Shown: positions 1-64,000, numbered from the stretch's first letter. The stretch: 64,000 bases of DNA from an uncultured Planctomycetia bacterium (GCA_964409365.1 CAYPCX010000002.1:32984-96983), one strand, 5' to 3'. Translations and numbers: made by a program. The notes: generated by a model not told the origin, from the letters alone.

Positions 1-3000
1 CTTACCGCGGGCACCCATACCGTGGAGGTCGCCTGGGATAACAGGCATCTGCTTTCGGCGGACAACGAAATAACACTGGAGGGCCTGTATGTAAGGGACG
101 AAAGGGTGGACACGCTTTGCGATCTCGATTCGGACGGAGCGGTCACCGTTAGTGACCTGGTCCTGATGGACAGGGAAAGCCCCGCGGAGGAAGATTCCTT
201 TGAAATAACAGTAGGGACCGTGAGCACGACCACCTATTACGTGACGCGCCTCGCCGACGGACGGTACACGTTCCTCGACGATGATCCGGTCCCCGAGAAC
301 AAACTCCACTATGTCTCTGATGCGTCCGGCAGGACGGTGGAGCTGCATGACGGCAAATACGTGATCCGCCTGGACAGCTCGACCGGCGAGCTCCTCGTTT
401 CAGAACACGTGGCAGCGGACCTTAACATGGATTCCTTTGTGGATCATGCGGATGTCACGGAACTCGTGGATTCCATGGAACTTTATTCCAGGCTGAAATT
501 CGCTGTCGATTTCTCTGGCGCGGCCAGCGCGTGGGACGTCGGCATGGAAGATGGCTCCGTATCCATCACGAAAGACGATTGCCTGGCAGGGAGCCACAAC
601 GGCCGCCTTGAATATGAGTTCGCGGTGACCGAAGGAGCCGATTATATTCTGGGGATCTCGGCGAGGGATCTTGTCGCCGATAACGATGGATACAGGTTCG
701 ATATAGCGGTAACTGTGGACGGCGAGAAGAAGGGGTACCTGAGGATCGAGCAGGACACGCTCCAGTCACAGACGGACGAGATCCTGCTCACGGAGCTGGA
801 TGCCGGCATGCATACTATCGAGTTGGAGTGGACGAACGCGGCGGAACTGGGCGATACGGAGCTCGCGGAGCTTTCAGTGGAGAACGTGTACCTGCGCGAC
901 AGCAGGGCATCCGTTTCGTGCGACCTGAACGGCGACGGTATAGTGGACGGCGCCGATTCCGAAGCTTGGCAGAAAGCAAGGCCCGCTACCGCGGATACCC
1001 GTAAGGTCGTCATGGAGAAAGCCGACGGCAGTACCGAGACGTATTCGGTATTCCTTAACTTCGACGGCACGTTCAAGGTCATAGACGAATCCGGCATTAT
1101 TTATACTATAGATGAGGCCGTGCCTTATTTTATACCGGGCGAGGCTTTTGCCTATACGCTTGCGGATACGGGTCCTGAAGGCGTGGAGGTAAGGGAATAC
1201 GTTCTTGATCTTGAGGGAACGTGCGAAGTGGCGCTGGATGAGACGACCGGCCAGGTATCGATCCGCGAGCGGACCCGGTCGAACGTGAATAAAGACGGGG
1301 AAGTCGACATTACGGATCTCGGGAAGGTGCTCGAGGAGGCCGGAAAAGCTCAAGTCGTGCGTGAGGCTTCCAGATACGTCGAGCTTGGCAATGATTTTAC
1401 GGCACTTTCCGACGGCCGCATCTATACGACCACTCCCGGTGAAGGTGACGACCTGTCGGTGATCTATGACACGGCGGGACTCGCCGCGGGCACCTATGAA
1501 GTAGAACTCTTCCTGGATCCCATCCTGGACGAAACGAACGGCACGATGATACCGTACGGGTTCACGTATGAGTTCGATGTATATAGCGGCAAAGAACAAA
1601 CACAAGGCGCGTTCCTCGGAACCATAGAAGTATCGCCGTTCACGGTCTATGTCGTTGAGGAAGATGAAAGGTCTTTCCTCTCCGGCAAGCTGACGTGCAG
1701 TGTCGATGAGCCGCTTGAGAATATCACCCTTGTTTGCCGACAGTACGTGAATGATATCACTATAAGCCTGCAGAGTGTAGCGGTAAGACGGGCCGATATA
1801 GACCTTGCCGCCGATCTTACCCTGGACGGGATAGTGGATGAAGAAGACATCTTGAAGTGGCATGACCTGGCGCCGAGCGAGAAGGATATCCGCAGGATAG
1901 CGGCGGGGGCCAAGACGTACGTGGTGATAGATAAAGAGAACACGGGCGAGTATATCTTCATCGATGAGGATACGCTCGAAGACGAGGAACCTGTCACGGT
2001 CCATTCCGGATCCGGCGGTAAGCTCGTGGAGCTTGAAGGGATCGAATATGTAGTAACGGAGAACCTTGGAGGCGAGCTGCTTCTCGTGGAGCGCCGCGTT
2101 TCCGACGTGGACATGGACGGTCTTATCACGCAGTATGATGCGACTTTGATGAGGGTGAACAATTTCACCTTCAGCGAAAGAAGGGCCGGTGATGGGTACT
2201 ACACCACGGAAGGGCTTTCGTGGCAGATCGTGGGAGACGGTACGATCTCCAACGTCAATGACGACGAAAGCGCGACTTATAAGTTCGAGCTTCCATCAAC
2301 CGGCCTTTACGATTTTGAAGCGGGCATCCGGGGAGTGGTTGCCGGCCACAGGTTCCTGGTGAGAGTTTTCGACAACGCGGTCTACCTCGGGGATATGGTC
2401 ATTGACATAGAAAGCACTTCAAGCGGGAATGTCGGCGTGCTGGGCGGCATCCAGCTCGGAGCGGGAATTCACGAAATACGGCTTGTCTGGGGCAACGACG
2501 ATGATTTTGAGGATACCGAGACGATAACGATAGAAGATGTAGTCGTGCGCAATACCCGTGAAGACCTGAGGTGCGATATCAACGACGACCGCGTCGTTGA
2601 CGAGGAAGATGTTATCGCCTGGTACGATTCGGCGCTCAGGGAAGGATATGTGAGGAAGGTCCCGATCGTTATAGGGATCACGCCGCATGACTTCCTCGTA
2701 GCTTACTGCGGCGACGGGATCGTAACGGTATATGAAGTGGGTCACGATCCGGTGGTGAGCCATGAAGGCATAGTCGAGCTGTACGGTGAGGAGTTCATGG
2801 CCCTCCCGGCGGATAACGGTGAAGTGGAACTTGCAAGGCGCGAAGCGACAGATACCAACGCCGACGGGACGGTCGATACTTTTGACCTGGCGGAGATCCT
2901 GGAAAGAACAGGGCTTACTTCGGGAGATGACGATTACAGCGGCCGTTTTGACCTGGACGGGGACCTTGACATAGACAGGGACGATATGATCGCCTGGCAG

Positions 3001-6000
3001 AACCTTACGCCGGACACTGCCGGGACCAGTGAGCTGGAGGTCGAGATAGACGGCACGCCGTATGCCTACGGAGTGGTGGAACACGCGGACGGCAGTTTTA
3101 TATTCTATGATCGCGATACCTGCGCTTTCGTGGCGGAAGCCCTGGAAAAGTCGGTCACTCTTGAAGGCAAGGATTTCATCATTCTTACCAGCATCGCGGG
3201 CGGGTTCTCTATAGTGGAAGCCAAGGCGCAGGATATAAACCTTGACGGGACCGTGGATGGAAGGGACAAGGATATCATCCTTTCCAACCTCGGCCTGGAA
3301 GAGGTCGGCGAGCTTTACCGCGCCGATCTCAATAGCGACAATGTCATAGACAGGGAAGACCTCCTCGTGTTCAACGAGCTGGTCCCGGTAGTCGACCGGA
3401 TGCAGCTTGTGAACATGAACGGCGAGGATTTCTATGCCGAATATAATGAGGACGGTAGATTCACTGTGAAGGAGACGGATCTTTCCGAGACTTATACCAG
3501 TGACGAAGATGGTCTTGTCACGATTGGGACCCGGGAATATTTATTCATGACGGTGAGCGGCAGGATAACGGCCGGCGAGGTCTACAGGTGCGATGCCGAT
3601 GCCAACAATATCCTTAACAGCATGGATACGAATACTGTCACGTACGCTTTGGGGTCAGGTCATATCGAACCGGTGGTCATAGGCGAGTGGACGACAGAAT
3701 TTTCAGGGGAGTTCGCCTTTGATATAGACGCCAGTACCTCGGGTTATTACAACGTGGGGCTTGAAATAGCCGCCATGGAAGTGGAAGAAGGGGAAGAGGC
3801 GGAATTCATACCCATGGCCGTCAAGGCCACCCTGGTGCCTTCCGTCGGCGAGGAAAAACTCCTCGGGTATTTTGACGTTCTCCCGAGAGCGGACGCCTCC
3901 GCGCAGGGCAAACTAAGCATCGCGCAGGGCATGTTCACCACCGGCACACAGACGGTAAGGTTCGAATGGACCAATGCCGCGCATATGGACCCGGTGAAGA
4001 TCGAGAAGGTCTTCGTGGAGGATTCAAGATACGCTATAGGCGCGGATCTCAACCAGGACGGTTTCGTGAACGAGGTAGACCAGAGGATACTCCAGACAGA
4101 GAGAACCGCCTCATCCGGCGGGATAGTGGACCTCTATGATCCGACCGTGTCAGATCCCGGTCCGGACGATAAGAACGAATATACGGTGACGACGGATACG
4201 AGAACAGGATCAAGCGGGGATTATACTACCTATATATTCACTGAAGGCGTCTTTTCGACCGAGTCGGATGAGTACGGCCGGGTAACGCTCGGCGCCGGAA
4301 ATTACGAATTCCTCGTGATCGAAAAAGACGGGGAAGTTATCCTTACAAGGCAAACGAGGGAATTCCTCGCCGAGGAAGACGCGCTTGTCTTTGCCTGCGG
4401 GAAGGCCTATCTCTACGATGACGAGACCGGGGTGTTCACCGATGTCGAGACGCCCGGCGATACAAGAGAGGTCACTGACGGCATCGTCGAGCTGGGAGAC
4501 GCTCATATCAAGTATTACGTTATCGAGGAAGCCGGCCAGGTAGTACTCAAAGAGGTCCAGGATACCGGCGCCGTAACGGCGAATGATATCATCCGCATAG
4601 AGGACAGCACGGATTACTTTGAAGATGCCGGCAGTCTCACGATAGGCGGGACCTACACCACGCCGGGTTCGGTGGTCTATGACGTGAGCGAGACGGCGGA
4701 GGGCCAGATAGTGCTGTCGCTGCACGTCGACCGGCACGGGCCCGAAGAGGACAGGTACCTGTTGGTCGAAGGGGAGATCTATCTTGTAGAAGGGAGTGCC
4801 GGAGCATACACTATTACCGCTATTACAGGGGGCCCGGATCCGGTCGTGGATAATGATGCTTCCAAGGTCGCCATAGGCAGCGAAGAATATGACATAGAAA
4901 AACTGGACGCCCAGCGCATCAAACTGACAAGAAGGGTCGACGCGGCAAGGTCCATAGCAGGGCGCATTATAAAGGTGGGCGAGGCGTTGTACACGATAGC
5001 CGCGACCACCGGCGGGGAACATGACTTCGTGAACTTGATGAACAGCTCCGATTTCACCACGAGCGTCCAGCACGAGGTCATGCTCGGCGGGACGATCTAT
5101 CTCGTGGAAAAGGGCGCGGAAGGCGAGCTGGTACTCCGACGGAAGTTCGATTCCGCGGTCGAGGAGGAAGACGCGCGGCTTGTAAGATTCGAGGATCACA
5201 CCTACGAGATCCAGGGTGTTGAAGGAGATTATACGGCCGTTGCCATCCAGGGAGGCGCTTACACCGTCGAGGTGAACAATATCGACAACACCGTGACCTT
5301 TGAGGACGAGACGGAGACCCTCCATGAATTCAGGATAGTGAAGCTCGAGGGAGAAGAAAAACTGGCCCTGGTCGAGGTATCCGCCGAAGCCGCCTCAGAG
5401 GATGCGCGCCTGGTGGATATAGACGGCGAGTATTACCTCTTGGATGAGACGCTCCCCGGAGAGTACACCATATCGGCATACAGCCACGGGGCGCTTGAAC
5501 CCGCGGAAGAGAACGGCCTCTTCATAATAGGAGAAGGTTCCTATGCGACCAGTGTCGATGAGGGCAAGATCATTTTGATAGAAGTGCCGAATGAGGTGGA
5601 AAAGGATGCTGACGCTTTCGTCGTCATCGAGGGTGGTGTCTATACCACGGAAGTGGACGGAGGCGGGGATTTCTCGCTCACGTTCATCGCGGGCGTCGAT
5701 AAGTCACCTGTTATAGATAACGAATACAGCACGGTAACGATGGATTCCGGCGCCGGGAACGTATACAGGATATGGGAAGATCCGGTGACGCTCGAGATAA
5801 ACCTGGAACCATACGTGACATCGAGCACGCCCGAGGAAGAGGAAATAGTCGCCGCCAGTTACGGCGAAGGATATACCGCGCTTTACAAAGCCGAGTTCTC
5901 GACGAACGGCGACGTCCTGTCGTTCGCTCCGGTAATGACCACGGAGGCCACTACCGTCACGTCCGTGCCGGACCTTTCGGTGGAATTCGAGACCCAGATG

Positions 6001-9000
6001 GCAACGATGACGGTCGACGGCACGGAGATCCTGTACGAGATAACGGTGGACGGCGCCTCGGGAGCGGTCACCCTCTCCATGGAACCCGAAAGAAGCACTA
6101 CGACGTATAACCAGAGGATAGAACTGGAGGGCGTGGTCTACGATGTCATCAAGGAAGTCGACGGATACACCATGATCTCGGGAGACAACGTATACACGAC
6201 CGGTTCCTACACCGCGATCACCGTTCTCGGCAAGGATTACGACATATTCACCGATCCGGACACGGAAGATATACGCCTGAGTGAGAAACCGGAAGAAGCG
6301 AGTTCCCAAGTCGGCGAGGTAATGTCGAGCGAGATTACAATAGGAAGCGTCTATACCACTGATACCGACAGCATAACTATAGGGGAAGAGACGTTCACTG
6401 TCGCCCCGGTAAATTTTGGAGCGCTTTCGGCCGAACATACCACCCAGCTCACCCAGAGTATAGGGGATTACGGCTCCGGGCGGGTCAGGGTGGCACTGGA
6501 CAGTTTCGGCAATATTTTTGAATACCTGGACGAGGATCACGACGAGATGGGCCGCGGCCGCGAAACACTGGTCTATCATAAAGAAACGGATACCTATGTT
6601 ACCTACGCCTGGGACGCCGCCCAGGTAACGGTTGACGTGTATTCCGGGGAATACACGAATCAGGGCGAGGACCTCCTGGTGGACGTCACATTGACGGAGC
6701 GGAGGGCGACATACGTCTATGATGGCACATACACGACCAACCTCGACCCTGCCACGAACGGCTGGGTGATAAGGACAGCTGCCGCTTATTCAACGAACGG
6801 CGTGTATACCACACTGGCCCGTGAATATGACGGGACAGGACGTCTCGCGAAAGAGACCAGGCCCGACGAAGACAGGTATTATCTATATCAGTATCACGCT
6901 TCACCAAATGAGTCGGTCGTAAGCGTGATGGAAGAGTATGAGCTCAGCACGGATGAGCTGGTAAGAGAAGAGGAATACCTGACAACGGGTCGGATGACCA
7001 CCAGCACGGCGGGCGGGTTGACCGCGGGATACTATACCACCGGAGCTGGAGCGCTTATCAGGAAGGGTATTTATACCACCGGTGACGTCCGCGAATTCCT
7101 GGAAGAGGATTTTGAGACAAGCTCATCCGGCAGGACGGTCCTGGAATATGACGCCGAATACACTACTTACAGGACATATGAGTGGTCTGGCGATACGGTC
7201 AAGGTAGAGGTGTTCGCCGGGGAATATACCACCGGCCTGTGGGATGAGCTCTGGAACGACGTCGACGAGGCCGAACGTATGACCACGTACATATATGAAC
7301 ACAACAGTAACCAGACGGATACGGACTTGGATACCAACGGCTGGGTCATAGTGAAAGAGGTCGTTTATGACGCCGACGGCAGCACCGTAATGGAATCAAA
7401 GACATTTGACGCGGAAGGGCGCCTTGCCAGGGAAGAGGAAATAGCCGGGGCCCTTTACACGACCTATTCGTATCACCCGACCGGCGGTTACACCACGAGC
7501 AAGAGGGAATACGACAGCGAAACAGGGTTCATCAACAAGTTCTTCCAGTATGACGACCAGGGCCAGATGATCGGTGACTACACGTCCCTGGCCCAGGCGG
7601 ATTACACCAATTACGCGGGATCCGGCAGGCTCATGAGGAGAGTAGTGGATTATGGGGCCATATACGAGTATTACGACGAGGACCATGATGAACTCGGGTT
7701 CGGCAGGGTGATGATCGCGTTCGATCCGGATACGGACACGTACAGGAAGTACAGCTGGAGCACGGACCTTGTCGTGGTGGACGTATACAGCGGGGAATAC
7801 ACCGTTCAGCCGGGAGACGCCGCGGGAGCGGGTATCGTCCTGTCCGAGCGCGTCGCCACATACACCTATTACCATGACCAGGAGAATATCAACCTCGATC
7901 CGGACTCCAATGGCTGGACATTGAAGAGCGCGACGGAATACCAGGCCGGCGGCGTGAGCCTCCAGGCGAAACAGGTCTATGACGCCGAAGGCAGGCTGAC
8001 AGGTCGCGAAGACCTTGCCGCGGGCAAAAAGTACAGCTACGAATATCATACCGAAAGCACGGGCCTGGGGCACACGATCTCGTCCATTAAAGAAAGGTAT
8101 ATTGTTACCGATATCCTTACCGACACGTTCGAGTATAGCGCCTCCGGTAAACTGACGATCCATACGGAAGCCGGTACGGGTGAAGTGGCCGAATATCATC
8201 CGGGATCGGGATTCCTCAAGAGAGAGACTTCGGACGGCAAGGTCTTTGAGTATCTCGAGGAAGATCACGACTCTCAGGGTTACGGGAGGGTGACACTTGT
8301 CTATGATATTGCCGGCGAGACCTATTCCACCTATGACTGGGACGCTGAAACGGTGACGGTAACGGTTTATACGGGCGTATATACGGTCGAAGCGGGAGAC
8401 GGATCGAGGGCCGGCGTGGTAGGATCGCAGAAGGCCGAGCAAAAAGTGTTCGACCACAACGGAGAAATGGTAGACCTTAACGTCCTGAGCAACGGGTGGG
8501 AGCTTGAGGAGAAGACGGCAGAGAACGAGAACGGCTACGCGGTAACTTATTTCTATGACGCGGAAGGAAGGATCGCGAAGAAAGAGATGCTGGACCTCGC
8601 CAGCGGCGCGTATTCCACATACGTCTATCTGTATCACGGATCTCCCGATGAGGTAATGGTGGACTCGGAATACGAGTTCACGTCCATGGAACCGCCGGTC
8701 CTGGAATGTGTCCGCGAATACAGTAACGAAAGAACGTTCATCTTCACCAATGATTCAACGGGTGAGGCGTACACGAGCACGTTCGATAATATGCTTAACA
8801 TAGAGGGCATGCTGTATGACCTGGCGTTCGATGCCGCCAGCGGCATGCTCGAGGTCCGGGAGAAGGGTATCGAGGTCAACGACAGGACATATGAATATGT
8901 TTTTAACGGCGATGACGAGACCTACGTATTCACCGATATCGAAGAAGGCACTTCATACGTGAGCACTGTCTTTACGACCGCGGCCGATTGTTTCGTGAAC

Positions 9001-57000: not shown

Positions 57001-60000
57001 ACGACCATCCTGGGCGGGGTCGGCGTACTTGACTACAATGACACTGTTAGCAAGACCTTCACGGGTATCCCGCAGGGCGAAGTTATCATAAGCTTTGATT
57101 ATTATTTCTTCGAAAGATGGATAAATGACGCGAGCCGGTTCAGCAGCGCGTACCTGAAGGTGGACGGCGAGACGGTATGGGCACAGGAACACGATTATCA
57201 CAGTGATGAAGAAGGGCAGCTGGAAGAACTGTTCGCAAGTCCTTACTATGGTGCCCTCAGCTATAACGACTGGGTAGGGCATTTCGAAGTCGTTTATGAC
57301 AATTCCGCGGGGAGCGACGCGCTTACACTCGAGTTCGGTGTGATACCGTTCATGAACGAGGAGGACTGGGGTATCGATAATGTGTGTATAGAGGCAGTGT
57401 ATTCGACCGGTGACCTGGCCGAACCCCGGGAATATATCCCGGTCATGCTGGACGGCGCGTATACTTCACCGGCCGCTCTTGAAGGGTCGAATTGCGTGCT
57501 TGAAGAGGAAGTGGCGGTCAGCCTGATGCCTGATGCCTGGCAGGTAGAAGATGAGATGATCTCCTTCAATACGCTGCGTGGCGGAGCGATCGATTCCATT
57601 TATACCACCTTGAGCTCTACAAGCGTGGCTTTCGGCGCGGAAGAAATAACTGTTCTTGATCCGCTGGTACCTGGGGGATCCGAGGGATTCCAGGTAAGCG
57701 GCGATGCCGCTTTTCTAATGCAGTCGGACGAGGCCTGCGTGGGGGATCATGCCGCTAAGACGGGAGCTATCTCGCACGGTGAGGCGAGCATACTGGAGAC
57801 AACAGTTAATACGGGCAAATACACCGGCACGGCGGGTTTCTGGTGGAAGGTCTCTTCCGAGGCGAACGACAAGTTCAAGTTCTATATAGACGACGAGTTG
57901 CAGGGCGAGATCTCCGGTGAGATAGACTGGAAATACACGACAGCGACGCTTTCCCCGGGCGAGCATACGCTTAAGTGGGAATATTCAAAGGACGGGAGCA
58001 CCTCCGCCGGCGATGACACGGCCTGGCTGGATGAGGTGACCGTTACTAAGGATATAATAGAGTTCGATGATTTCCAGACCGGCGCCTATACGAATAACTG
58101 GGATATCGGTATCATGTATGGAGGCGTGACCGCGCCATACACAACGGACGTTGTCGGAGAGACCATCCTGGGCGGGTATAACAAGTTTGGAAAGGACGCA
58201 ACCGCCGTCAGGACGATAACGAATGCGCCGAAAGAAGCGATCACCATAAGTTTTGATTATTATTTTATCGATAATTGGTACACCGATGAAGCCATATTGG
58301 AGATAAACGGTGAAGTGGTATGGAGTCTATCGCATACCTATAACAGCAGCGATGGCGGTGACTACGAGGAAGACGGCCTACTTCAGGAGATCGGAGTTAA
58401 TGGTGACTCTGTCGGCTATTCCGGGACCAGTTATAGAGACTGGGTAGGGCATTTTGAGATCGTTTATGACAATACCGGCGGAGCGGATATGTTGGAGCTT
58501 GAATTCCGCTCTACGTTGGATGATAGCGGGATAAACTACAGCGAGTCATGGGGTGTAGACAACGTGCGGATGGAGATATTGGATCATCTCCTGATGCATG
58601 ATGATTTCACGCCGGAAAATCAGGTAACTATCTATTTTGACGATGAAGAAATAACGTATGATGAACTCGCCGGTAAATTGGCGCAGCTCCAGGCCGCGGG
58701 AATGGATTTTGAGGTGCATTCCGGGGACATTGCGGACGATGAACATGAGGATGGCATCATATGGTTCCGGACCGTGGACCCGTCGGTGACGGAAATAGAT
58801 GTTTCGGGCGCGCTCGAGAGCGTCAATTTCGGCGGAGGAGAGCTCGTCATAGGTGTTTACACGGTAACGGCGCCTGCGATCATTCGCCTGGACGGCCAGG
58901 AGGTGACCCTTGTGGCGCTTGAAGACGCATTCCAGCTCGGCGAGGTAACGGGTATATTCGAGATACGGACGCTCGCGACCTGTGGCGGAGAAGAAACAGG
59001 CGGCCAGATCACGTTCGCGGACAATATGGTTGAGCTTTACCGTGTCTATGACAAGGCGCACCGCCAGCTGACAGGCGGCGTGGAGGCCCTTAATGCGGCT
59101 ACAGGCACCATAACTATTGATGGAATGGAAATAGAACTGCCTGAGGTTCTTACCTTTAATGGAAAGACGATGAATGCCGGAGAGTTCATAGCGGCGTGCG
59201 AAGAGGTCCTGACCGGTCTGGCGTTCGAGGCCGTGCAGGCCCGCGGCATAACCGAGGACTTTGAAGACGGAACGCTTGATAGTTGGAGTATACGCGGCAC
59301 GAATTCGGAATGGGAAGTAGCAAACGGTACCCTGGTCCAGACATACCTCACCGATACGAGTGGCCAAGAGGATATCTATGAAAAGAGGGCTATTTTCACG
59401 GACAGTGCCATTCCGGAAAGAGAGGACGCGGTGTCCTCGATAAGCGCGCGAGTCAATCCTTACAGATGGCATGTTTATAACGATGACAACGGCACTGCCC
59501 AGGCGGATATCTACGCTTGCTACCAGGATGAGGATAATTACTACCGGATGAGGTTCGGTGAAGATGATATGGTCTATGTGCAGCAAATGAGCGACGGCGA
59601 ACTCATGACGCTTGCGTCCTGTGATGTAAATGCCGGTTTCGGGATCGATATCCAAAGAGATTCCTGGCGCGAATACTCTTTCAGCGTGTTCGGGGACACG
59701 GTCAAAGCGTATATAGACGGAGAACTGGTGCTTGAATACAGCGGGGCCGAAGTCGACAACACGCCGCATGTACTGGCTGATGCCCTTGTAGGCGTCGGGT
59801 GTCCCGGAAATAACCAGGTCTGGTTCGATGATATCAGTATAAGTGAGACGGTGGGTATGGAGGTAAAGCCGCTCTACGCTTATGACGCGATAAAAACCGC
59901 CGAAGGATGGGAACTGGAGCAGGGTTCGTTCGGGGTGTACACCGTCCTGGAACAGAATTATGTGACGGGTCTGGTCCAGGGTGTTGACGCTTCCGCCCGG

Positions 60001-63000
60001 AAGTTCACGATAGCCGGCGAGACTTGTGAGCTTACGGATATGTCTTTTGCGACGCTCGAACTTTCGGATTATACCACCGGCGGTGACTCGGCGTTCTTTG
60101 TCGACGGAAATCTCTCAGAGGGCTTCAGCCTGCGTTCGGGCGATATTGCCGATGGGGAAAGCTCATTTGTGCAGACGACCGTCACCCTGGACGAGGCGAA
60201 GGAACTCACGTTCGACTGGCTTGTGGATTCCGAGGCGGGGGATCTGATGAATTTCTACCTGGACAATATGGTCACGCCGGCGGCCACGACTTCGGGGCTG
60301 AACTATTACGAGGCCGAAAGCAATTTTGAGGCCGGCGCTGAGGGATGGGATATCACCTTCTCCGGCACCGAACCGGACGATACGTCATTCTGTAACGGGA
60401 CGTATATCCTGGGCGGGGACGAGAACTTCAACTACGGTGAAAAGGCCAGCAAGACGTTTACGGGCCTCCCGCAATCCATGGTCACCATCAGTTTTGATTT
60501 TTATTTCATCGATAACTGGGACGGGGGAACGCCGACAAGTGGCGACACGGCGTACCTGAAGGTAAATGAAGAAGTAGAGTGGTCGCAGCCGCATAAGTAC
60601 GACGCCAGCGCCCCTGGCGAAAGCGACCTGCTGGAAAGCGGTTCACTGCGAGAAATTTCCAATATCTTGACGCTTGGCGCGACTTACAGGGATTGGGTAG
60701 GGCACTTTGAGATCGTCTATGACAATACCGGAGGGTCCGATACGCTGGAGCTTGAGTTCTATACAGGCACGAACCTTAATAGCGAGCGCTGGGGCGTGGA
60801 TAACGTGAGAATAAGTTCCGCCTGGACGACCGAGACTTATCATCTCTCGGCCGGGGAACATACCTTGAGGTGGGAATATACCAAAGACGGGGCCGGTTCC
60901 GACGGCCTGGACGCGGCATGGGTAGATAAAATAGCGGTATCCGACATTCAGGTGGATCTCGACGGGACGAACGATCATGTGGATATCCCGGACCTGGGCC
61001 TTTCGGACGGCTTCACGATCGGTATATCGGCGAAGACGGGCTTTACCGACCCGTCCGCCGGAGACAGAACGATCCTCCATGCCAGCGAGGTTTCAGGCCA
61101 GAATGAAATAACGCTCAAATGGGATGAAAATGAGGAAGGCCTTGTCCTTACCGGCTGGGATTCTTCCGCGAGCGCGAGTTACGATATTACCACGGAGATC
61201 GGCTATGACGTGACCGGATGGAACGATTACGTCATCACCTATGACTGCACAACCGTAAGGATATATTTTAACGGTGATATCGTAGCCTGCGAAGACATCG
61301 GCCTTGATGTCTCGACCGTCGGCAGCTGGCTGGTAGGGAAATACACCACAGACACGGAATACTTTGTGGGCTCAATAGATGAAATGTTCGCTTTTGACCG
61401 CGTATTGACCTCCGGCGAGATAAAGAACCTCCACAACGGCAAGAAACCGTCGGAGATCGAGAATTACGGCACTGACTGCCACGGCTGGTGGGCTTTTGAT
61501 GAAAATACCGGGACCGACCTGGATGACAAGACCTCCGGTGGCAATGATGGCATTATTAATGACGCGACCTGGTCAATGAGCGTTGCAAAGGTCGATGATT
61601 TCACGCCGGCGGACTATATCAGTGTTACCGTTGACGGGTATGAATGCTCGTATCGTGAGTTCGAGGATCTCTTCGGCCAGAGCGCGGACGGCCTGACCGC
61701 GTTATACCTTGAGGAAGTCGAACGGGCCAAGGTCGGCTGGAGCCTTACGGAGAGGGTCGTGGAGTTCGTGACGGCCGGTCCGGAAGACCTCATATCCGGA
61801 GCCCTGGAAGAGATAGATACGGATGACGGGAAGATAACCATCGGCGGCATAGAATTCATCGCGCCCAGCGAGGTGTATGTGGATTACCAGCTGATGAGCC
61901 TTGAGGACCTGGAGGATAAGCTCGGCCAGGCGCAGTATTCACTCTTCACCATAAGCACGCTGGCAAGCTGCGAATATACGACGGTCTCCCAGGGAGTATA
62001 CGAGTTCACGGATGACAGGATAGACCTTTATACGGTCGCGCCGTTCGGTCCGTCCGGGCTTGTCGAAGACCCGAGCGCGTTCACGGAAGTGACCATCAAG
62101 TGCGACGAGGTCATAAGCGTTACCGGTATCTATTCCGACCAGGCGACCTATACGGTGGAGGTCAATGATACGACGGGTATGGTCGAAATAAAAGAGGACG
62201 GCGACCTCATCGTTTCCGGCGACATACCCGAGCAGGACTTCCTGCTCCTGGATGACAAAGGTCGGGAGATGATGACCGTGACGATCGACTACAAGGACAT
62301 AGTCGATGCCGTCCATACGGTGTACCTGCCGGCAGGCGGCTTTACCACGGAAGTCGCGATAAAAGAAGGCCAGATCCTCTCCGCGACCAACCTGCCCGCG
62401 GGTTACAATGTGGAATTCAACGATATATCCGGATTCTTACAGCTCCTGTACGGGGACGCGGTCATAGTTGAAAGCAAGGTGCCCACGCTGCTTCCGTATG
62501 TAAGCGAAGAAGACATGGTGGTCCTGGAGACCTCCATACTCGAGGAAGCCGCCTTTGACGTTACCCCGGACGATGACCGCGATTCGGTATACACGATCAA
62601 TAATACCTTCTCCGACGGTGTGCTTGACCGCACTTACGCGCCTTATTTCGACGGGGAATATACGATAGACGTAGCCGACCTTACGGGTGACGAAAGGTGC
62701 GACCAGCAGGACGTGGACTACCTGGAGATGCTGGCGGACGCCTGTTTGCGCATGAGAGCGGACCTTACCGGGGACAGCAGGGTGGACCAGGCGGATGTCG
62801 ACTGCTGGGACGTCAGCCCGTTCAACTGGAAAGATATAGACGGCGACGGCGAGATCAACAGCGAAGACTATACAGAACTTGTCAGGCTCGTCGCGGAGAG
62901 CGCGGCGATCTACTTCCAGGCGGACGTGAACAGGGACGGCGTAATAGACGCTGAGGATGAAGCAGATTTTCTCACTTACATCGCTGATAAGGAAAAACTC

Positions 63001-64000
63001 GCCGAGGTCGAGGCCGGCGACATGATGATCTATTACGAGACGTCCGGCGGTTTCAGGACCGAGACGCACGCGGCGGACTTGGCAGGGCTTTACACTACCG
63101 CGGGCTGGAAGTTCGAAGATGACAGCCTCTTGCTGGATAAGACACCCGAAGAGGACATCACCGGTCAGGCCTTCAGTTTCGAGATAGACGCCGATACGGA
63201 AGGCCTGTATGAATTGGCCGTATCCGTGCGCAATCCTTATCCGTTCGTTGAAAGCGGCAACGTGATCGAGCTCAACGTATACGTGAACGGCGAATACAAC
63301 GCTTACGGGAACCTTGATGTGGATAACTTTGCGGAAAACTTCCAGAAAATAATCACTGATATATACCTTAACGAGGGAACGAATACGGTCACCATCATGG
63401 TCTGGGATCTGAACGGCGACGGCGACCGTATGGTAGAGGGTGAGCTGCCGGCGGTTATGCCGTCCGGGTACGGCGTGGGCCTGGAGATAGAGAAGATCTA
63501 TCTTGAAAAAGGATACAACCCGGCGCTCGACTTCAACGCGGATAACGTGATAACGGCCGACGAGATGCAGAAGTTCTTTGACGAAGAATACGTGGAAAGG
63601 CCCGCGACGGCGATACAGAGCACGCCCAGCAGCGAAAAGTGGGTGATCGTGGGCGGTGTCGCTTACGCCGTGGGAGAATATACCGATCATATAGAGTTCA
63701 TTTACGGCGCTGCTTCTTACACCACCGACAATACCGGCGGGATCGTTACCCTCGAAGACGGTATCCAGTACGAGGTAACGACCGAGAACGGCGAGGTTAT
63801 CGTCACTGAAGTGCAGGAGCTCATAACCGTGGCGGAAGACACGAGATACCTGACGATAGACGGCACCCGGTATATCGCGGAAGAGACGGAAGCAGAAGGC
63901 GTGATAAAACTGACGGGCGGCGGCGATGTCATAACGAGCGAAGAAGCCTACAAGATAACCGTTGAAGGGACCCGTTACGATATCGTGTTCGCCGGGGAAT
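1..64000 (+). CDS. Single ultra-giant ORF, partial at both ends, encoding at least 21,333 aa of a modular acidic Ca2+-binding carbohydrate-binding/adhesin-like mega-protein
   Basis: Frame 1 translated by hand across the window with 0 stop codons. Every 60-nt line begins a codon. The ORF track has no frame-1 entries, consistent with a frame open to both edges. Codon usage is coding-like (GC-rich 3rd positions) and recognisable protein domain motifs occur throughout. Confidence 0.96.
607..978 (+). other. CBM6/CBM35-like β-sandwich module ('LEYEFAV..GADYILGISARD...LDAGMHTIELEWTNA...VENVYLRD') plus dockerin-type Ca loop (DLNGDGIVDGADSEAW)
   Basis: Motif layout Y-x-F-x-(V/L)...G-x-Y-x-L-x-I-x-A-R ... 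(V)DG ... L-x-A-G-x-H-T-(I/L)-x-(L/F)-x-W-x-N matches the CBM6/35 topology. The loop follows the DxNxDGxxDxxD dockerin/EF-hand pattern. Confidence 0.4.
2272..2637 (+). other. CBM6/35-like module ('ATYKFELPSTGLYDFEAGIRG...GAGIHEIRLVWGND') plus dockerin-type loop (DINDDRVVDEEDVIAW)
   Basis: Same motif skeleton as the module at 607-900, with a Ca-loop immediately downstream. Confidence 0.4.
2851..3009 (+). other. Canonical two-segment dockerin-like domain (DTNADGTVDTFDLAEIL ... DLDGDLDIDRDDMIAWQNL)
   Basis: Two DxNxDGxxDxxD loops, each followed by an amphipathic helix and spaced about 30 aa apart, as in type-I dockerins. Confidence 0.55.
3229..3384 (+). other. Canonical two-segment dockerin-like domain (DINLDGTVDGRDKDIILSNLG ... 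DLNSDNVIDREDLLVFNEL)
   Basis: Duplicated 22-residue Ca-loop plus helix segment, the classic dockerin architecture. Confidence 0.55.
3709..4101 (+). other. CBM6/35-like module ('FAFDIDASTSGYYNVGLEIAA...TGTQTVRFEWTNAAH...KVFVED') plus dockerin-type loop (DLNQDGFVNEVD)
   Basis: Motif skeleton as above. Confidence 0.4.
4201..6480 (+). repeat. Tract of degenerate β-hairpin repeats of roughly 24 aa (consensus about Φ-x-Φ-x-G-x-x-Y-x-Φ-x-x-D-x-x-T/E-G-x-Φ-x-L)
   Basis: Examples: VTLGAGNYEFLVIEKDGEVILTR, VMLGGTIYLVEKGAEGELVLRR, VDIDGEYYLLDETLPGEYTISAY, VVIEGGVYTTEVDGGGDFSLTF. Confidence 0.5.
6481..8680 (+). repeat. YD/Rhs-like tandem repeat block: about 4 diverged units of 170-210 aa
   Basis: Recurring 'FEYLDEDHD..G.GR...Y...TDTY..Y.W....V.V.VY.GEYT' and 'LD...NGW.....Y....YDAEGRL' motifs. 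Units begin near nt 6520, 7140, 7660 and 8245. The YD dipeptide hairpins are typical of RHS_repeat. Confidence 0.5.
10153..10518 (+). other. CBM6/35-like module ('LTYTFELEDTDDYFVGLSARN...TKGTHEVKFVFKNTSG...DIYVNR') plus dockerin-type loop (DTDRDGEITEHDAETLEALI)
   Basis: Motif skeleton as above. Confidence 0.4.
10981..14340 (+). repeat. Second long tract of the β-hairpin repeat of roughly 24 aa
   Basis: For example VSLNGEIYLIMEDEQTGLFTVTDG, VRLNGLLYSITEDEENDTITLAR, VEIDGIEYELVEGAEGELALVSV, VDIDGRTYEVTVTTDETEGETVRL, IRLSGTLYNVTYDYLTGRYVFDNG. Confidence 0.5.
16249..16620 (+). other. CBM6/35-like module ('FSYNIVPQVSGVYHLAIKASSSALTV...DATEHEVMFMMSNP') plus Ca loop (DINGDYRYTTEDGQVIQRMI), embedded in the dockerin array
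   Basis: Motif skeleton as above. Confidence 0.35.
17281..17781 (+). other. DUF1080-like (3-keto-disaccharide hydrolase family, LamG-like jelly-roll) domain #1, inserted in the dockerin array
   Basis: 'WTAGSGDWSITD...EAEDFILETQVRL...GGAGIMFHFQDEDNYYECVL...WYDLKVEANGREYTFYLNGEEMF...TGGKAGLVC...ADFDDFVLG' follows the DUF1080 motif order. Confidence 0.5.
20880..21180 (+). other. Predicted α-helical/coiled segment within the Ca-loop array
   Basis: 'QREKILEAKDVKAKIETLDEMLASGSYTTPEAKAQLEEIIDYLGLQTMEGNVASSFDAKLELLTKVLKEEIF...RQELLEEMVEKLG' is heptad-like, E/K/L-rich and lacks loops. Confidence 0.3.
21268..21381 (+). other. Canonical EF-hand pair (DKNSDGKITQAE ... DADGDGVTTQSE)
   Basis: 12-residue loops with D1, N/D3, D5, G6, hydrophobic 8 and E12, which is the textbook EF-hand consensus. 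This differs from the dockerin-type loops elsewhere, which carry D at position 12. Confidence 0.55.
22681..26040 (+). repeat. Third long tract of the β-hairpin repeat
   Basis: For example VVIEGTLYDVDYDAATGEVTLTEV (23290s), VEIGGILYDIDEIGEEIRLTAR (24210s), VRGVLYDISFDAESNIVLTKH (24700s), VEIGGVEYVLEYEVKQEW (25780s). Confidence 0.45.
28381..31110 (+). repeat. Fourth tract of β-hairpin repeats with interspersed unclassified segments
   Basis: For example LDGETFKIGQDRYRVFANS, VILGDVFYIIEGPDGNGHYTVREA, VVEADGTINLSGRTTEASGAYIIEVNGAQYVVSEA, LADDVLYRVTRDPETEEVILSDA. Confidence 0.4.
31219..31623 (+). other. CBM6/35-like module ('EINYRIDIPSAGVYDIGLFARTYNS...GEGEHDLNMVWNIPEW') plus dockerin-type loop (DLDGDLDVDDDDLAILVTNIG)
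   Basis: Motif skeleton as above. Confidence 0.4.
32929..33078 (+). other. CBM5/12-like (chitin-binding-type) small domain
   Basis: 'EWSMEEKYYVDDIVSKDGVDYICTSTHTYHPDYVPGTGSNWISRWSVF' matches the CBM5/12 pattern W...Y..GD.V...G..Y.C...H.....W.P......W. Confidence 0.4.
33085..33615 (+). other. DUF1080-like jelly-roll domain #2
   Basis: '...DIYAGYVNDSDDVNDYGSAFYQMRVGKDDILTIYRK...GFGIDIEPDEWHEYTFGAW...IKAFIDGEKIIEL...GGKAGVGCPAGGSVRFDEVRVN' is homologous to the motif order at 17281-17781. Confidence 0.45.
34819..35421 (+). other. LamG_3-type (Concanavalin A-like lectin/glucanase) domain #1
   Basis: Ends in the signature 'FAFFDRALSETEIQALV...EGIVAYYSFDAGDAKDDSGNGNDGSM'. Confidence 0.5.
35821..36435 (+). 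other. DUF1080-like jelly-roll domain #3
   Basis: 'DLYVRYQDADNFYRMRLGDQDTLEIGKSTGGEYTTLAIVNVNTGFGINIVRDNWYRFAFVCDGDTGELAAYIDGVEVLSF...GAAGVGCAENVRAYFDDVTFG'. Confidence 0.45.
36931..37500 (+). other. DUF1080-like jelly-roll domain #4
   Basis: 'DLYLRYRDDDNFYRLTLNEETDIVKIERASSGVYSTLAEVNVNTEFSLDLLEDQWYEISFVAWGNRLTGYIDSMEVISV...GYAGVGGRSNTELYFDDLEV' is a paralogue of domain #3. Confidence 0.45.
38341..38784 (+). other. 'TILGGY/FDYYFID' β-sandwich module, copy 1 (unclassified family)
   Basis: 'TVILGGYEKFNYDDTVTKTFTGDLLQDAVTITFDYYFIDSWSDYDAYLEINGERVWEQSHDHD...YDDYVGHFEVVYDNTGGPDTLALTFG...YWGIDNVKV'. Six paralogous copies occur in the window. Confidence 0.35.
39589..40011 (+). other. CBM6/35-like module ('WLEYEFDILHEGAFDIRIQVKNGS...LAEGTHTLRFVWANSGS') plus dockerin-type loop (DLNDDGVVDAEDLDIFMSSYG)
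   Basis: Motif skeleton as above. Confidence 0.4.
40327..40980 (+). other. LamG_3-type domain #2
   Basis: 'MSFDGVDDHITAPV...ITLAAWANI...VDDVSLWDEALTGGEIREVMSSG...EGLVAYYSFNDGTAVNNTGDY'. Confidence 0.5.
41065..41436 (+). other. CBM6/35-like module ('YRLTYEFDDVYGRGNYNIGLDVRTHA...LEDGDHTVTFTWLNPEEG') plus dockerin-type loop (DINFDGAVNSEDIRLFGS)
   Basis: Motif skeleton as above. Confidence 0.4.
41584..42243 (+). other. LamG_3-type domain #3
   Basis: 'LSFDGFEDHLEAS...HAIAVTREYSTLTLYIDGEL...MDDISVWGRALTQAEVRELY...CRAWWELDEGMGAEFMDSTANDRDGTVSGAAW'. Confidence 0.45.
43276..43575 (+). other. CBM6/35-like module ('LKLRVFVDGEGYDDFYCGNISVPW...LTQGVYTVRFQWANDYGEE') plus Ca loop (DFNGDYVADDEDHDQM)
   Basis: Motif skeleton as above. 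Confidence 0.35.
44116..44439 (+). other. GG-type lectin / ILEI (FAM3)-like domain #1
   Basis: 'GINIVTVDKDTGEREFTSWETDLEANVQAMTVYLRNHAQGTIVIASKGGSKVGALNEDAFLALESAGSAHIRDVVSGSTWSMVGYIGAS' parallels the FAM3/ILEI core (G-L-N-I-A-L-V-N...TG...FDM.....FL...P.GALVLVAS.DD......A...LGS...R.SW.FIGAK). Confidence 0.5.
44995..45609 (+). other. LamG_3-type domain #4
   Basis: 'VDFDGTNDYIDCDNIMNGFTDFSISLWLKT...WHHVAVVRSGSTITFYVD...IDEVAIFDTALAEEDVEALLS...LTAYYSFDDHTAEDSSVNGNDGTILG'. Confidence 0.5.
45640..46290 (+). other. LamG_3-type domain #5
   Basis: '...HISVPYQAVEGLSDFTYSIRVKAG...WHMVTVTREYSTLALYVDGAE...FRDISVWERALDGAEVSALY...CRAWWAVDEGTGAQVLDATDNSYDGAFELGAWA'. Confidence 0.45.
46321..46656 (+). other. 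GG-type lectin / ILEI (FAM3)-like domain #2
   Basis: 'EDGVNMAYIPPAGDIEFSTWDTSYTTNAGAMADYLEGIYSTGMREGAVLLVSIQGTTAATGLTEDALAALEAFGSLEIRKVSASDRWSMAVLVEEV' has the same core as domain #1. Confidence 0.45.
47248..47544 (+). other. CBM6/35-like module ('YKFDVDIKGPDDSVHRNVGQITVFAG...MPIGEYYVRFTWVDQEEG') plus dockerin-type loop (DLNSDGKIDVEDKMIMHESAG)
   Basis: Motif skeleton as above. Confidence 0.4.
48091..48420 (+). repeat. Short YD-repeat cluster
   Basis: 'DGEVKIYDAADDKLWKKFLPDGRVFRYDKDGHLDEMTDRTGNLIYCHHDEEDQTTVTVDITNDITKSYDQQGRLVEVISEEGELTYDYT' carries YD/GRL hairpins typical of RHS_repeat. Confidence 0.45.
48427..49032 (+). other. LamG_3-type domain #6
   Basis: 'MSFDEDVEQVLIEGDSSLNASEAFTVSAWFNW...WYHVTVVKESDDNVHVYLYD...IDEVAFFDRALDATEAQELKG...GLVACYSFDDGTAKDITGNGRDGFAT'. 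Confidence 0.5.
49336..49902 (+). other. LamG_3-type domain #7
   Basis: 'YLTFDGTDDYIDCGDIADFHDIEYGTVETWIKG...WYHVAVVWSSTGMELYIDGLL...IDEVAVYDHALTGDEIRQHYSDG...GLVAFYAFQDGEVTDGSGNGKDGVKYG'. Confidence 0.5.
50272..50976 (+). other. LamG_3-type domain #8
   Basis: 'LGLKFDGADDYIGLSS...LSTWAFIDP...WAHYAVTWKNLGEDAETGDYFVEVKLYVNGEAVA...MRDASVWSSALSEEDMADIYSG...CEGWWRLEEASGTVAEDQTLNDRDGTINGGAWG'. Confidence 0.45.
51016..51555 (+). other. Discoidin / F5/8 type C (CBM32/NPCBM-like) domain
   Basis: 'ISSATATYNQTGYDISETLDGIKDSADNGWAVDG.CGQSAMFTFDGLPAVDTVVLTQ...DLKDFELYYTVDEDPSLTDSIWVSV...ALKIQVNDTMDADHNFVLSEVEVFGS' follows the F5_F8_type_C motif order (ASS...DG...T.W...Q...VDL..V..V.L.Q...F.I.YS.DG..W...........RYVRL......E.EV.G). 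Confidence 0.5.
52114..53070 (+). repeat. 'WEY-KD' jelly-roll module W0, preceded by three tandem ~96-aa (~288-nt) copies of its N-terminal half
   Basis: The half-units begin at 52114, 52399 and 52687, each '(A/T)D(F/Y)STGG(D/N)A(P/A)F(Y/F)(V/I)Q...(F/L)(Y/F)AL(Q/K)(S/A)G(D/P)I(S/T)(D/H)(G/D)E...E(R/K)V(V/I/F)T(F/L)(D/E)...(V/I)SF(Y/D)WK(V/A)S(S/T)E'. They are followed at 52875-53070 by the C-half '...LTAGTYTVRWEYTKDADDTGATYKDTAWLDNVVIRA'. The H2/H3 nt identity is about 90% over the first ~45 nt. Confidence 0.5.
53101..53586 (+). other. 'TILGGY/FDYYFID' module, copy 2
   Basis: 'TTILGGYYKFGQGACAVKEFTGVPQGEVTISFDYYFIDNWSSDDGILYVNGEEVWRLTHTYDSD...YRDWVGNFEIVYNNTSGSDTLKLAFTS...SFGMDNVKIE'. Confidence 0.35.
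53839..54237 (+). other. 'LTIGxYTVYAP ... WEY-KD' module W1
   Basis: 'LTIGAYTVYAPEAVLLDGETVTLADLDNMLQDPDHAVKFDIRTLATVEGEYTDTGILF...FSFYVGDTLVDEIYGETDWTEATHALTAGTYTLRWEYAKDDLWSRGDDTVWMDDLRVD'. About 80% nt identity to 56506-56901. Confidence 0.4.
54250..54765 (+). other. 'TILGGY/FDYYFID' module, copy 3
   Basis: 'TTILGGYNKFGQGATASTVLTDVPQGEITITFDYYFIDRWDGADDEGFLKINGQEVWSLAHKYDN...YRDWVGSFEVVYDNTGGPDTLVLTFGS...SWGIDKVKVE'. Confidence 0.35.
55081..55662 (+). other. LamG_3-type domain #9
   Basis: 'CLDFNGASEYVSTPV...TFEAWVYPKS...WQHIAAVFDPVGGKVHFYKNG...IAEAAIFDRPLTEEEIQARLDANS...GLLAYYSFDDGTALDSSGSGNDGTIKG'. Confidence 0.5.
55708..56271 (+). other. LamG_3-type domain #10 (paralogue of #5)
   Basis: 'REYVAVPYGTIDGLSDFALNFRVKAEE...WHMVTVTRSGDELSVYIDG...LRDISVWERALTEVEVGAMY...CRAWWGIDEGTGTAVLDKTTNANDGAIHGAGW'. 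Confidence 0.45.
56506..56901 (+). other. 'LTIGxYTVYAP ... WEY-KD' module W2
   Basis: 'LTIGSYTVYAPGEIRLDGQEISLADLENVLQDPDHASKFDIRTLATLEGEYTDTGILF...FAFYVDDALIDEIYGEVDWTDVTHALPAGTYTLRWEYSKDVLWSEGDDAAWIDGLDF'. Confidence 0.4.
56917..57393 (+). other. 'TILGGY/FDYYFID' module, copy 4
   Basis: 'TTILGGVGVLDYNDTVSKTFTGIPQGEVIISFDYYFFERWINDASRFSSAYLKVDGETVWAQEHDYHSD...YNDWVGHFEVVYDNSAGSDALTLEFG...DWGIDNVCIE'. Confidence 0.35.
57685..58050 (+). other. 'WEY-KD' module W3 (complete, contiguous)
   Basis: 'GFQVSGDAAFLMQSDEACVGDHAAKTGAISHGEASILETTV...GFWWKVSSEANDKFKFYIDDELQGEISGEIDWKYTTATLSPGEHTLKWEYSKDGSTSAGDDTAWLDEVTV'. Confidence 0.4.
58054..58581 (+). other. 'TILGGY/FDYYFID' module, copy 5
   Basis: 'ETILGGYNKFGKDATAVRTITNAPKEAITISFDYYFIDNWYTDEAILEINGEVVWSLSHTYNSSDGGDYEEDGLLQEI...YRDWVGHFEIVYDNTGGADMLELEFRS...SWGVDNVRMEI'. 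Confidence 0.35.
59254..59847 (+). other. DUF1080-like jelly-roll domain #5
   Basis: 'EDFEDGTLDSWSIRGTNSEWEVANGTLVQ...DIYACYQDEDNYYRMRFGEDDMVYVQQMSDGELMTLASCDVNAGFGIDIQRDSWREYSFSVFGDTVKAYIDGELVLEY...VGVGCPGNNQVWFDDISIS'. Confidence 0.45.
60061..60945 (+). other. 'WEY-KD' module W4, split by a nested insertion of 'TILGGY/FDYYFID' copy 6 (60322-60819)
   Basis: N-half 60061-60300: 'LSDYTTGGDSAFFVDGNLSEGFSLRSGDIADGESSFVQTTVTLDEAKELTFDWLVDSEAGDLMNFYLDNMV'. Then the full T-module: 'TYILGGDENFNYGEKASKTFTGLPQSMVTISFDFYFIDNWDGG...YRDWVGHFEIVYDNTGGSDTLELEFYTG...RWGVDNVRISS'. Then the C-half 60820-60945: 'AWTTETYHLSAGEHTLRWEYTKDGAGSDGLDAAWVDKIAV'. Confidence 0.4.
60946..61572 (+). other. LamG_3-type domain #11
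   Basis: 'IQVDLDGTNDHVDIPDLGLSDGFTIGISAKTG...WNDYVITYDCTTVRIYFNGDIV...IDEMFAFDRVLTSGEIKNLHNG...CHGWWAFDENTGTDLDDKTSGGNDGIINDATW'. Confidence 0.5.
63172..63591 (+). other. CBM6/35-like module ('FSFEIDADTEGLYELAVSVRNPYPF...LNEGTNTVTIMVWDLNGDGD...IYLEK') plus Ca loop (DFNADNVITADEMQKFFDEEY)
   Basis: Motif skeleton as above. Confidence 0.4.

Follow-up and report, generated by a model that had tools for sequence, protein, structure and literature searches.

We analysed a 64,000-nt stretch of DNA deposited under an uncultured Planctomycetia bacterium (GCA_964409365.1, CAYPCX010000002.1:32984-96983), hereafter the window, and found that it is an internal fragment of one genuine, very large protein-coding gene. 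A single open reading frame (ORF) of 21,333 codons occupies positions 1..63999 of the plus strand. We read the encoded polypeptide, with a probability of roughly 68%, as part of a giant surface protein of the phylum Omnitrophota, of the kind called Dockerin-type giant protein, which is poor in transmembrane (TM) segments, rich in dockerin and lectin modules and would act as a glycan-binding fibre.

Translation of the whole window in frame 1 of the plus strand gave no TAA, TAG or TGA codon over nt 1-63999 (21,333 codons), in agreement with an earlier reading made from the sequence alone (the sequence-only reading), which had reported this frame as open throughout. The remaining five frames contain 119-1,134 stops each, and base composition predicts about 920 stops by chance, with a probability of about 1e-408 of finding none. 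Because all three stop codons are absent from frame +1, no reassignment of the genetic code is needed. The GC fraction at third codon positions (0.64-0.74) and the frequency of purines at codon position 1 (about 0.71) are uniform along the window, GC content (0.53-0.57) and GC skew are flat over the 64 kb, and Pfam domains occur in frame +1 from one end of the window to the other. The stop statistics, the uniform codon statistics and the in-frame domains bear out the earlier claim of a single, genuine coding region with 21,333 codons or more. The same reading had placed the gene's termini, signal peptide and neighbours outside the window, and indeed no start, stop, signal peptide or neighbouring gene was seen within the 64 kb. 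A search of Rfam found no RNA gene or ribozyme inside the ORF.

Frame -2, which lies in exact antisense register to frame +1, contains 119 stops and has open runs of up to 979 codons. We considered an antisense gene in this frame and rejected it as a codon-usage shadow, because its 119 stops correspond exactly to the 21 TTA, 13 CTA and 85 TCA sense codons of frame +1. ORF callers could report spurious long antisense genes here. The codon usage of the window is odd for a GC content of 55%: AGG makes up 49% of arginine codons and ATA 47% of isoleucine codons, and CGA, CTA and TTA stand at about 1% each in the ORF, a pattern that could be of use in binning the contig.

An uninterrupted frame of this length might also be an assembly artefact, in which repeated modules of several shorter genes or strains were joined wrongly or strung into a chimera. 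The product is indeed strongly modular and repetitive, and repeat-driven fragmentation of assemblies has been noted for Dockerin-type genes (West-Roberts et al. 2023, bioRxiv 10.1101/2023.11.21.568195). However, the closest DNA copies in the window share no more than 84% of positions over 76 nt and 76% over 300 nt, and Tandem Repeats Finder returned two trivial arrays only. Repeats this diverged give an assembler no basis for a false join. The same holds for the internal repeats at 52-61 kb, which had been singled out as a cause for worry: their copies share 70-84% identity over stretches of 300 nt or less and present no real danger to the assembly. We consider an artefact highly improbable: GC content, skew and codon usage are even along the window, the frame runs through 64 kb with no stop where random joins would break it two times in three, and P0031, a protein from another metagenome-assembled genome (MAG) described below, independently shows the same module order over aa 11,628-19,420.

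Selection has acted on the modules. For pairs of paralogous modules, most with 49-59% amino-acid identity and two with 37-42%, the ratio of nonsynonymous to synonymous substitutions (dN/dS) was 0.13-0.24 and dS was 1.3-2.7, near saturation. The near-saturated dS together with the low dN/dS indicates that the module duplications are old and under purifying selection.

The product has a mass of 2.36 MDa within the window, an isoelectric point of about 4.05 and a net charge of about -2,976. Aspartate (10.8%) and glutamate (9.5%) together account for 20.3% of residues, compared to 6.3% for lysine (2.8%) and arginine (3.5%), with 0.5% cysteine, so that the protein is as strongly acidic as had been proposed. 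A hydropathy scan of the 21,333 aa found no TM-like segment: all 19-residue Kyte-Doolittle windows lie below 1.6, and the highest, at 1.56, contains charged residues.

We searched Pfam with 44 overlapping 1,000-aa tiles of the window protein (22 non-overlapping; E <= 0.01). The families found are of binding or Ca2+ types only, namely Dockerin_1, EF-hand and Laminin_G_3/LamG/pentaxin (a ConA-like lectin fold), with further matches to PF06439 (DUF1080, also ConA-like), the GH59 C-terminal lectin domain and ILEI and a sub-threshold match to CBM_5_12. The overlapping tiles contain no catalytic, cohesin, TSP3, discoidin, GNAT, peptidase or SecA domain, and no Big, cadherin, VCBS, haemagglutinin or fibronectin domain was detected in the window. 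Nothing in the window protein exceeded the NCBIfam cutoffs. The view that the product has no recognisable enzymatic core thus holds for Pfam and NCBIfam alike, and sequence searches of aa 1-15,000 against solved structures in the PDB gave chance-level matches only and no enzyme.

To take a census of modules, we built profile hidden Markov models (HMMs) from seed instances and iterated them on the window protein itself. The resulting 100 module instances cover 64.8% of residues. The most abundant is a ~190-aa module that we call HP210 (30 copies, 5,641 aa in total), followed by 23 dockerin-like/EF-hand modules, 12 copies of CBMdoc, a ~170-aa sandwich resembling carbohydrate-binding modules (CBMs) that ends in a dockerin-type loop (ADLNxDGxVDxED), and 11 copies of LamG_3. 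Less numerous are bsand110, a ~110-aa beta-sandwich (7 copies), A1, a ~185-aa beta-sandwich that is usually paired with bsand110 as a super-module (6 copies), DUF1080-like modules (PF06439; 5 copies, above the Pfam cutoff in several tiles), a 191-aa YD-like repeat (4 copies) and ILEI (2 copies, 44-47 bits). Both the Pfam search and the census support the previous description of the protein as a mosaic of extracellular-type beta-sandwich lectin/CBM-like modules and Ca2+ loops.

Dockerin_1 exceeded the Pfam cutoff in 10 of the 22 non-overlapping tiles, with scores of up to 99 bits and 4-7 stretches per 1,000 aa. By motif, we counted 50 dockerin/EF-type loops (64 with the loosest pattern) compared to 0.5 expected; these lie in the 23 dockerin-like modules and fall well short of the hundreds of Ca2+ loops that had been suggested. 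Of the 23, 14 fall in a hyper-acidic, dockerin-dense region at 15652..22572 (aa 5218-7524, plus strand, as are all features below), which also contains one DUF1080-like module (aa 5753-5926) and one CBMdoc unit. Within this region, aa 6001-7000 has 16.4% aspartate and is enriched in methionine, at 36 per 1,000 aa compared to 6-24 elsewhere. Four CBMdoc copies (aa 169-346, 457-642, 732-891 and 1209-1374) and a dockerin (aa 1078-1126) lie close to the start of the window, at 505..4122. The profile of the 12 CBMdoc copies matches the dockerin of PDB entry 2y3n_B through its C-terminal loop (E 7.6e-8) and, weakly (E 0.005-0.013), the beta-sandwich regions of 3wnl and 2wz8, which we take to be CBM35 modules.

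The dockerins raise the alternative that the protein is an enzyme-recruiting, cellulosome-like scaffold, in which the 23 dockerin modules would bind cohesin-bearing hydrolases or a cohesin-bearing anchor and the lectin/CBM modules would target the substrate, be it polysaccharide or the cell wall of prey, for degradation. The frequent above-threshold Dockerin_1 matches and the CBMdoc match to 2y3n_B, which comes from a dockerin-cohesin complex, are consistent with this idea, as are the CBM-like and LamG/DUF1080 modules, typical companions of glycoside hydrolases. For Dockerin-type proteins, West-Roberts et al. propose a role in attaching to and processing surface polymers of a host or prey cell (10.1101/2023.11.21.568195). 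However, no cohesin or catalytic domain was found in the Pfam tiles of the 21,333 aa, and many of the dockerins are lone or split EF-type loops next to beta-sandwiches, not the duplicated modules of the canonical form. Seymour et al. class modules of this kind as non-cellulosomal dockerins and interpret the Omnitrophota giant ORFs that combine them with laminin_G_3 as adhesins (PMC10066038). A scaffold is therefore unlikely in our assessment, and we return to the glycan-binding fibre as the preferred reading.

To find relatives of the window protein, we searched 1.84 billion representatives exhaustively with HMMER, using the super-module profile. Nearly all of the 10,072 matches are via bsand110 only, a common domain of many unrelated surface proteins; among the matches listed, A1 was the best-matched stretch in two proteins only, P0031 and P0079. 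P0031 (NCBI MFC1643850.1; 7,122 aa) fills its 21.4-kb contig, P0079 (NCBI MGB2601658.1; 2,790 aa) fills its 8.4-kb contig, and each bears the name [quoted passage not shown]. P0031 is collinear with the window protein in ten ordered high-scoring segment pairs, which extend over 34882..58260 and total 4,069 aligned columns (mean identity 37.7%). For P0079 the identity is 37% over 956 columns, and for a third relative, the JGI fragment P0046, it is 35% over 1,443 columns. Among the proteins compared, A1, HP210 and CBMdoc were confined to P0031 and/or P0079; the other 185 had none of the three. P0079 has the Pfam kit LamG_3, DUF1080 and Dockerin_1, and all three relatives are similarly acidic, with 17-18% aspartate plus glutamate. 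They cover parts of the C-terminal half of the window protein; aa 1-11,400 had no match in any of the three. The divergence from them is at about the genus-to-family level or deeper.

The best-conserved block between the window protein and P0031 is at 42256..44100 (aa 14086-14700). Over these 615 aa the two proteins are 51% identical by BLASTP and 53% by MAFFT and share an invariant 13-mer, SKANNWTLPWGSD. Apart from the flanking dockerin loop, the block matched no Pfam family.

Other searches returned less. An exact 52-mer taken from the start of the window was absent from viral contigs, and no match to aa 1-800 was found in genome and metagenome collections. A degenerate pattern of the A1 motif matched four times in the window and never in shuffles, and had no match in JGI metagenomes or viral contigs. 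A second scan of GTDB, based on the best-conserved block, was also negative; this negative is weak because its patterns were poor, consisting of dockerin loops only. A word-indexed protein search returned nothing for aa 8001-9000 (nt 24001-27000) or for A1 (e.g., 53074-53622), and only generic LamG proteins of 0.6-1.7 thousand amino acids (kaa) for aa 16001-17000. We discount the word-index negatives because the exhaustive HMMER search found clear relatives, and we note that for fast-evolving repeat proteins such negatives should not be read as "orphan".

The collinear, Omnitrophota-labelled relatives with the same modules place the window in a family of giant-gene fragments from Omnitrophota MAGs, and we consider it quite likely that the gene itself belongs to this phylum. 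Alternatively, the window could encode the same kind of protein in another lineage, such as another phylum of the Planctomycetes-Verrucomicrobia-Chlamydiae group, Clostridia or an archaeal or eukaryotic symbiont, with the Omnitrophota label coincidental or mis-binned. The labelled relatives share no more than 31-51% identity with the window protein, single-ORF contigs of 8-21 kb cannot be binned into MAGs reliably, large dockerin-bearing proteins are also found in Clostridia, and GTDB representative genomes gave no match, the negative of the second scan being a weak one given its poor patterns. This explanation nevertheless seems quite unlikely to us: of the three extended relatives among the matches listed, two were deposited independently and both are labelled Omnitrophota, and dockerin, DUF1080, ILEI and LamG_3 in a TM-free giant is the combination described for that phylum. 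A haloarchaeal origin, suggested by the acidity, was rejected. Usage of AGG for 49% of arginines and ATA for 47% of isoleucines seems unlike that of haloarchaea, and the extended relatives are all bacterial.

The module content, the family relationship and the TM-free run point to a protein that is probably a cell-surface attachment fibre. This is the best functional reading, as the sequence-only reading had also proposed, and the closest known class has been interpreted likewise in the literature. The polypeptide would be exported and tethered by parts that lie outside the window; in described relatives the tether is a C-terminal TM region with SecA-like domains (10.1101/2023.11.21.568195). 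Outside the cell, it would form a sub-micrometre, highly negative fibre or coat with the modules arranged as beads on a string. Ca2+ at the ~50 predicted dockerin/EF loops would stiffen the junctions between modules, and charge repulsion would keep the fibre extended and hydrated. By our own estimate, the part encoded in the window might reach roughly 0.3-0.5 µm when extended, if at least ~100 modules span 3-4 nm each. The lectin/CBM-type modules, of at least five families, could provide multivalent, broad-specificity binding to envelope glycans of a host or prey cell. Any polysaccharide-degrading chemistry would come from elsewhere: parts of the gene beyond the window, genes nearby or partners bound to the dockerin modules.

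Several points weigh against this reading. The window contains no signal peptide, anchor, SecA-like region or secretion-system neighbour, and export and tethering are assumed. TSP3, discoidin and GNAT, which are typical of the Dockerin-type class, were not detected in its Pfam tiles. Lectin-fold domains are no proof of glycan binding, and the ligand, Ca2+ binding and expression are predictions. The 35% of residues outside the modules could hide a divergent enzyme. The phylum derives solely from how two NCBI MAG proteins, 31-51% identical to the window protein, are named; the window has no marker gene, and neither the source contig nor closer relatives were found in viral, GTDB-representative genome or JGI metagenome collections.

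HP210, the most abundant module, occurs mainly in four arrays. Array 1 has five units (3952..6471, aa 1318-2157), and array 2, the longest at ~1,400 aa, has six detected units (11026..15258, aa 3676-5086). Array 3, with six units (22570..27261, aa 7524-9087), has no Pfam or NCBIfam family and no word-index homologue, and array 4, with five units (29635..32577, aa 9879-10859), has a CBMdoc embedded at aa 10388-10555. We modelled one unit (aa 3676-3868) with AlphaFold2, which yielded 17 strands at a predicted local distance difference test (pLDDT) score of 81. In this model, the HP210 spacer unit is a pair of small meander beta-barrels, or double mini-barrel, with no significant match in the PDB. 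An RHS/YD shell or beta-helix was considered for the module and rejected for the single unit on the basis of the two-barrel model, the PDB comparison and hhalign. The module was found with a 190-aa profile; an earlier HMM of a short tyrosine-rich hairpin motif was powerless, with 13 matches.

Four tandem 191-aa repeats rich in tyrosine and threonine lie at 6439..8751 (aa 2147-2917) and carry the signature YDAEGRL, the other copies being 33-41% identical to the first. YD repeats had been proposed as a general component of the protein. A YD-like signature is present in this stretch of ~770 aa, but it does not extend to the protein at large: the best score against RHS_repeat (PF05593) was 20.6 bits compared to a cutoff of 22, in this one region only, and the repeat profile matched no RHS, Tc or teneurin structure in the PDB at E <= 1. 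The far more abundant tyrosine-rich hairpin material belongs to a different module, HP210, to which the YD-like repeats are unrelated by hhalign. No RHS core or toxin domain was found in the Pfam tiles of the window, and the repeats are absent from P0031, P0079 and P0046. A distant relationship to RHS proteins may exist, given the visible YDxxGRL-like motif. The repeats may correspond to the RHS-like beta-helix "tubule" that has been described in Omnitrophota giants.

A lectin-rich region at 33040..50826 (aa 11014-16942), delimited by Pfam and the census, holds 8 LamG_3, 3 DUF1080-like, 2 ILEI, 4 CBMdoc, 1 A1, 5 dockerin and 6 HP210 modules. It is followed at 52129..60864 (aa 17377-20288) by the super-module region, which corresponds to the internal repeats at 52-61 kb and comprises 7 bsand110, 5 A1, 2 LamG_3 and 1 DUF1080-like modules; the sixth copy of A1 is at aa 12763-12940. 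The last part of the window, at 60961..63999, contains a LamG_3 (aa 20321-20475), a dockerin (aa 20945-20992), a CBMdoc (aa 21029-21214) and an HP210 unit that runs off the window's end.

AlphaFold2 predicted the bsand110+A1 super-module as two beta-sandwiches with a pLDDT of 63, A1 being mostly at 73-87. Foldseek matched the model to Bacteroides SGBP-B, to CBM6-type and porphyran-binding CBMs, to the CBM-like domains of Vip3 and to the K1/K3 cleaved-adhesin domains of Lys-gingipain, with TM-scores of 0.5-0.6 normalised to the target for the last. We found no Pfam or NCBIfam model for bsand110 at the thresholds used and propose it as a candidate new domain family. Its copies in the window span aa 17377-20136 (nt 52129-60408), and nearly all public matches of the super-module profile (E <= 1e-3), which number more than 10,000, are due to it; its carriers include peptidase C10 and FKBP-containing surface proteins.

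Omnitrophota are tiny, host-dependent and probably predatory, and their giant genes are among the largest in biology; how the products are made, exported and used is barely understood. The window adds 64 kb of uninterrupted, apparently well-assembled sequence from the rarest, Dockerin-type class, with its modules mapped and signs of purifying selection in them. Several of these modules fold confidently, lack a curated family and are suited to tests of glycan or Ca2+ binding, and the window adds a data point on how a multi-megadalton, TM-free, highly charged polypeptide is secreted. A further-reaching proposal, which we regard as speculative and somewhat unlikely, is that the complete gene encodes 30-60 kaa or more, nearly all of it a TM- and enzyme-free hyper-acidic fibre built largely of modules that lack both a curated family and a solved structural homologue, in an Omnitrophota-related lineage without a close sequenced relative. 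If true, this would be the longest purely "beads-on-a-string" adhesin known and would define a distinct LamG/HP210-type subclass without TSP3 or discoidin, in which HP210, A1 and the 615-aa block with SKANNWTLPWGSD are family-less.

The size of the protein is by itself no longer exceptional. The sequence-only reading held that it exceeds almost every described bacterial protein, a statement that is outdated: a survey lists 3,650 proteins of 10 kaa or more and 348 of 30 kaa or more, the longest having 147,155 aa (Nielsen & Lui, 10.64898/2026.06.07.730766). In that survey, long Omnitrophota proteins carry up to 36 copies of PF13385 and up to 15 dockerins, with dockerins present in 21 proteins; the protein repeats have largely faded at the nucleotide level, and ~80% of the sequence clusters have a single member (10.64898/2026.06.07.730766). 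The phenomenon is thus already described, and the window does not establish a new category.

Among known systems, cellulosomal dockerin proteins and scaffoldins of Clostridia share with the window protein type I dockerin loops above the Pfam threshold and CBM-like modules. The window differs in having no cohesin or glycoside-hydrolase module and in carrying dozens of dockerin-like elements in one polypeptide.

LapA, SiiE and MpIBP are giant Ca2+-dependent repeat adhesins of the repeats-in-toxin (RTX) and bacterial immunoglobulin-like (BIg) types. Unlike these, the window contains no GGxGxD motif (1.8 expected) and no Big or cadherin domain, and whereas RTX adhesins consist of near-identical tandem repeats, its modules belong to different families and are far more diverse. 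These adhesins and the giant Chlorobium chlorochromatii proteins of 36,805 aa and ~25,000 aa work in a similar way in principle, each as a very long acidic string of Ca2+-binding beta-sandwiches that holds ligand-binding domains out from the cell for attachment to other cells or to cell surfaces.

The giant proteins of Omnitrophota have been divided into TM-rich, multi-enzyme "Archaeovorins" and a rarer "Dockerin-type" (10.1101/2023.11.21.568195). The type protein of the former, 39,678 aa from Ca. Velamenicoccus archaeovorus LiM, has peptide support for its expression. Archaeovorins resemble the window in being giant ORFs of what appears to be the same phylum with a proposed role at the interface with host or prey, but they have dozens of TM helices and no dockerins, whereas the window is TM-free and dockerin-rich and lacks their glycosyl transferases and hydrolases, methyltransferases, NUDIX domains and HEAT repeats. 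The window might still be the extracellular passenger of a mixed, Archaeovorin-like giant whose enzymes and multiple TM segments lie just outside the 64 kb. We treat this as a tentative possibility, on the doubtful side, which would not be exclusive of an attachment fibre. Both gene ends are outside the window, 98.6% of Omnitrophota proteins of at least 30 kaa have TM helices or a signal peptide and many are multi-enzyme (10.64898/2026.06.07.730766), and complete C-termini of Dockerin-type proteins have TM and SecA-like regions, some with C39 peptidase and GNAT (10.1101/2023.11.21.568195). A run of 21,333 aa without a TM segment or enzyme is nonetheless hard to reconcile with ~1 TM segment per 370-1,000 aa in Archaeovorin-type giants, and dockerins are reported not to occur in Archaeovorins (10.1101/2023.11.21.568195).

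The window is closest to the Dockerin-type class. West-Roberts et al. describe proteins of this class as having dockerin/EF-hand and TSP3 repeats with discoidin, DUF1080, ILEI and GNAT domains. They are mostly TM-free, with a C-terminal TM region with SecA-like domains and in some cases a C39 peptidase. Their ~200-aa CBM35-like barrels are joined by dockerin-like helices and accompanied by a ~1,500-aa antiparallel beta-helix "tubule", and the locus has genes resembling a type II secretion system upstream and pilZ downstream (10.1101/2023.11.21.568195). By the size classes of those authors, "giant" at >=30,000 aa and "large" at >=10,000 aa, the window's at least 21,333 aa falls in the large class; three Dockerin-type examples of at least 30 kaa were reported, all incomplete, making this the rarest and worst assembled class (10.1101/2023.11.21.568195). 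The window differs from the class in lacking TSP3 (PF18884), discoidin (PF00754), GNAT, C39 and SecA-like domains, and the single modelled unit of its top module, HP210, is a pair of mini-barrels rather than part of a ~1,500-aa beta-helix tubule. The likeness to the example CAILPI010000004_73 is one of described features. The window shares with the class a very large ORF, many Dockerin_1/EF-hand modules, DUF1080, ILEI and a long TM-free stretch, and its ~170-200-aa CBM-like sandwiches joined by dockerin-type elements may be a further common feature. Most of the sequence is unannotated in both, the repeats are diverged, the sequence is near-orphan and the predicted role is extracellular attachment. 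Since its dockerins, DUF1080, ILEI, LamG_3, TM-free run and, more tentatively, its CBM-dockerin units fit the described class, the window is not categorically new and possibly represents a LamG/HP210-rich sub-type of this known class of giant proteins.

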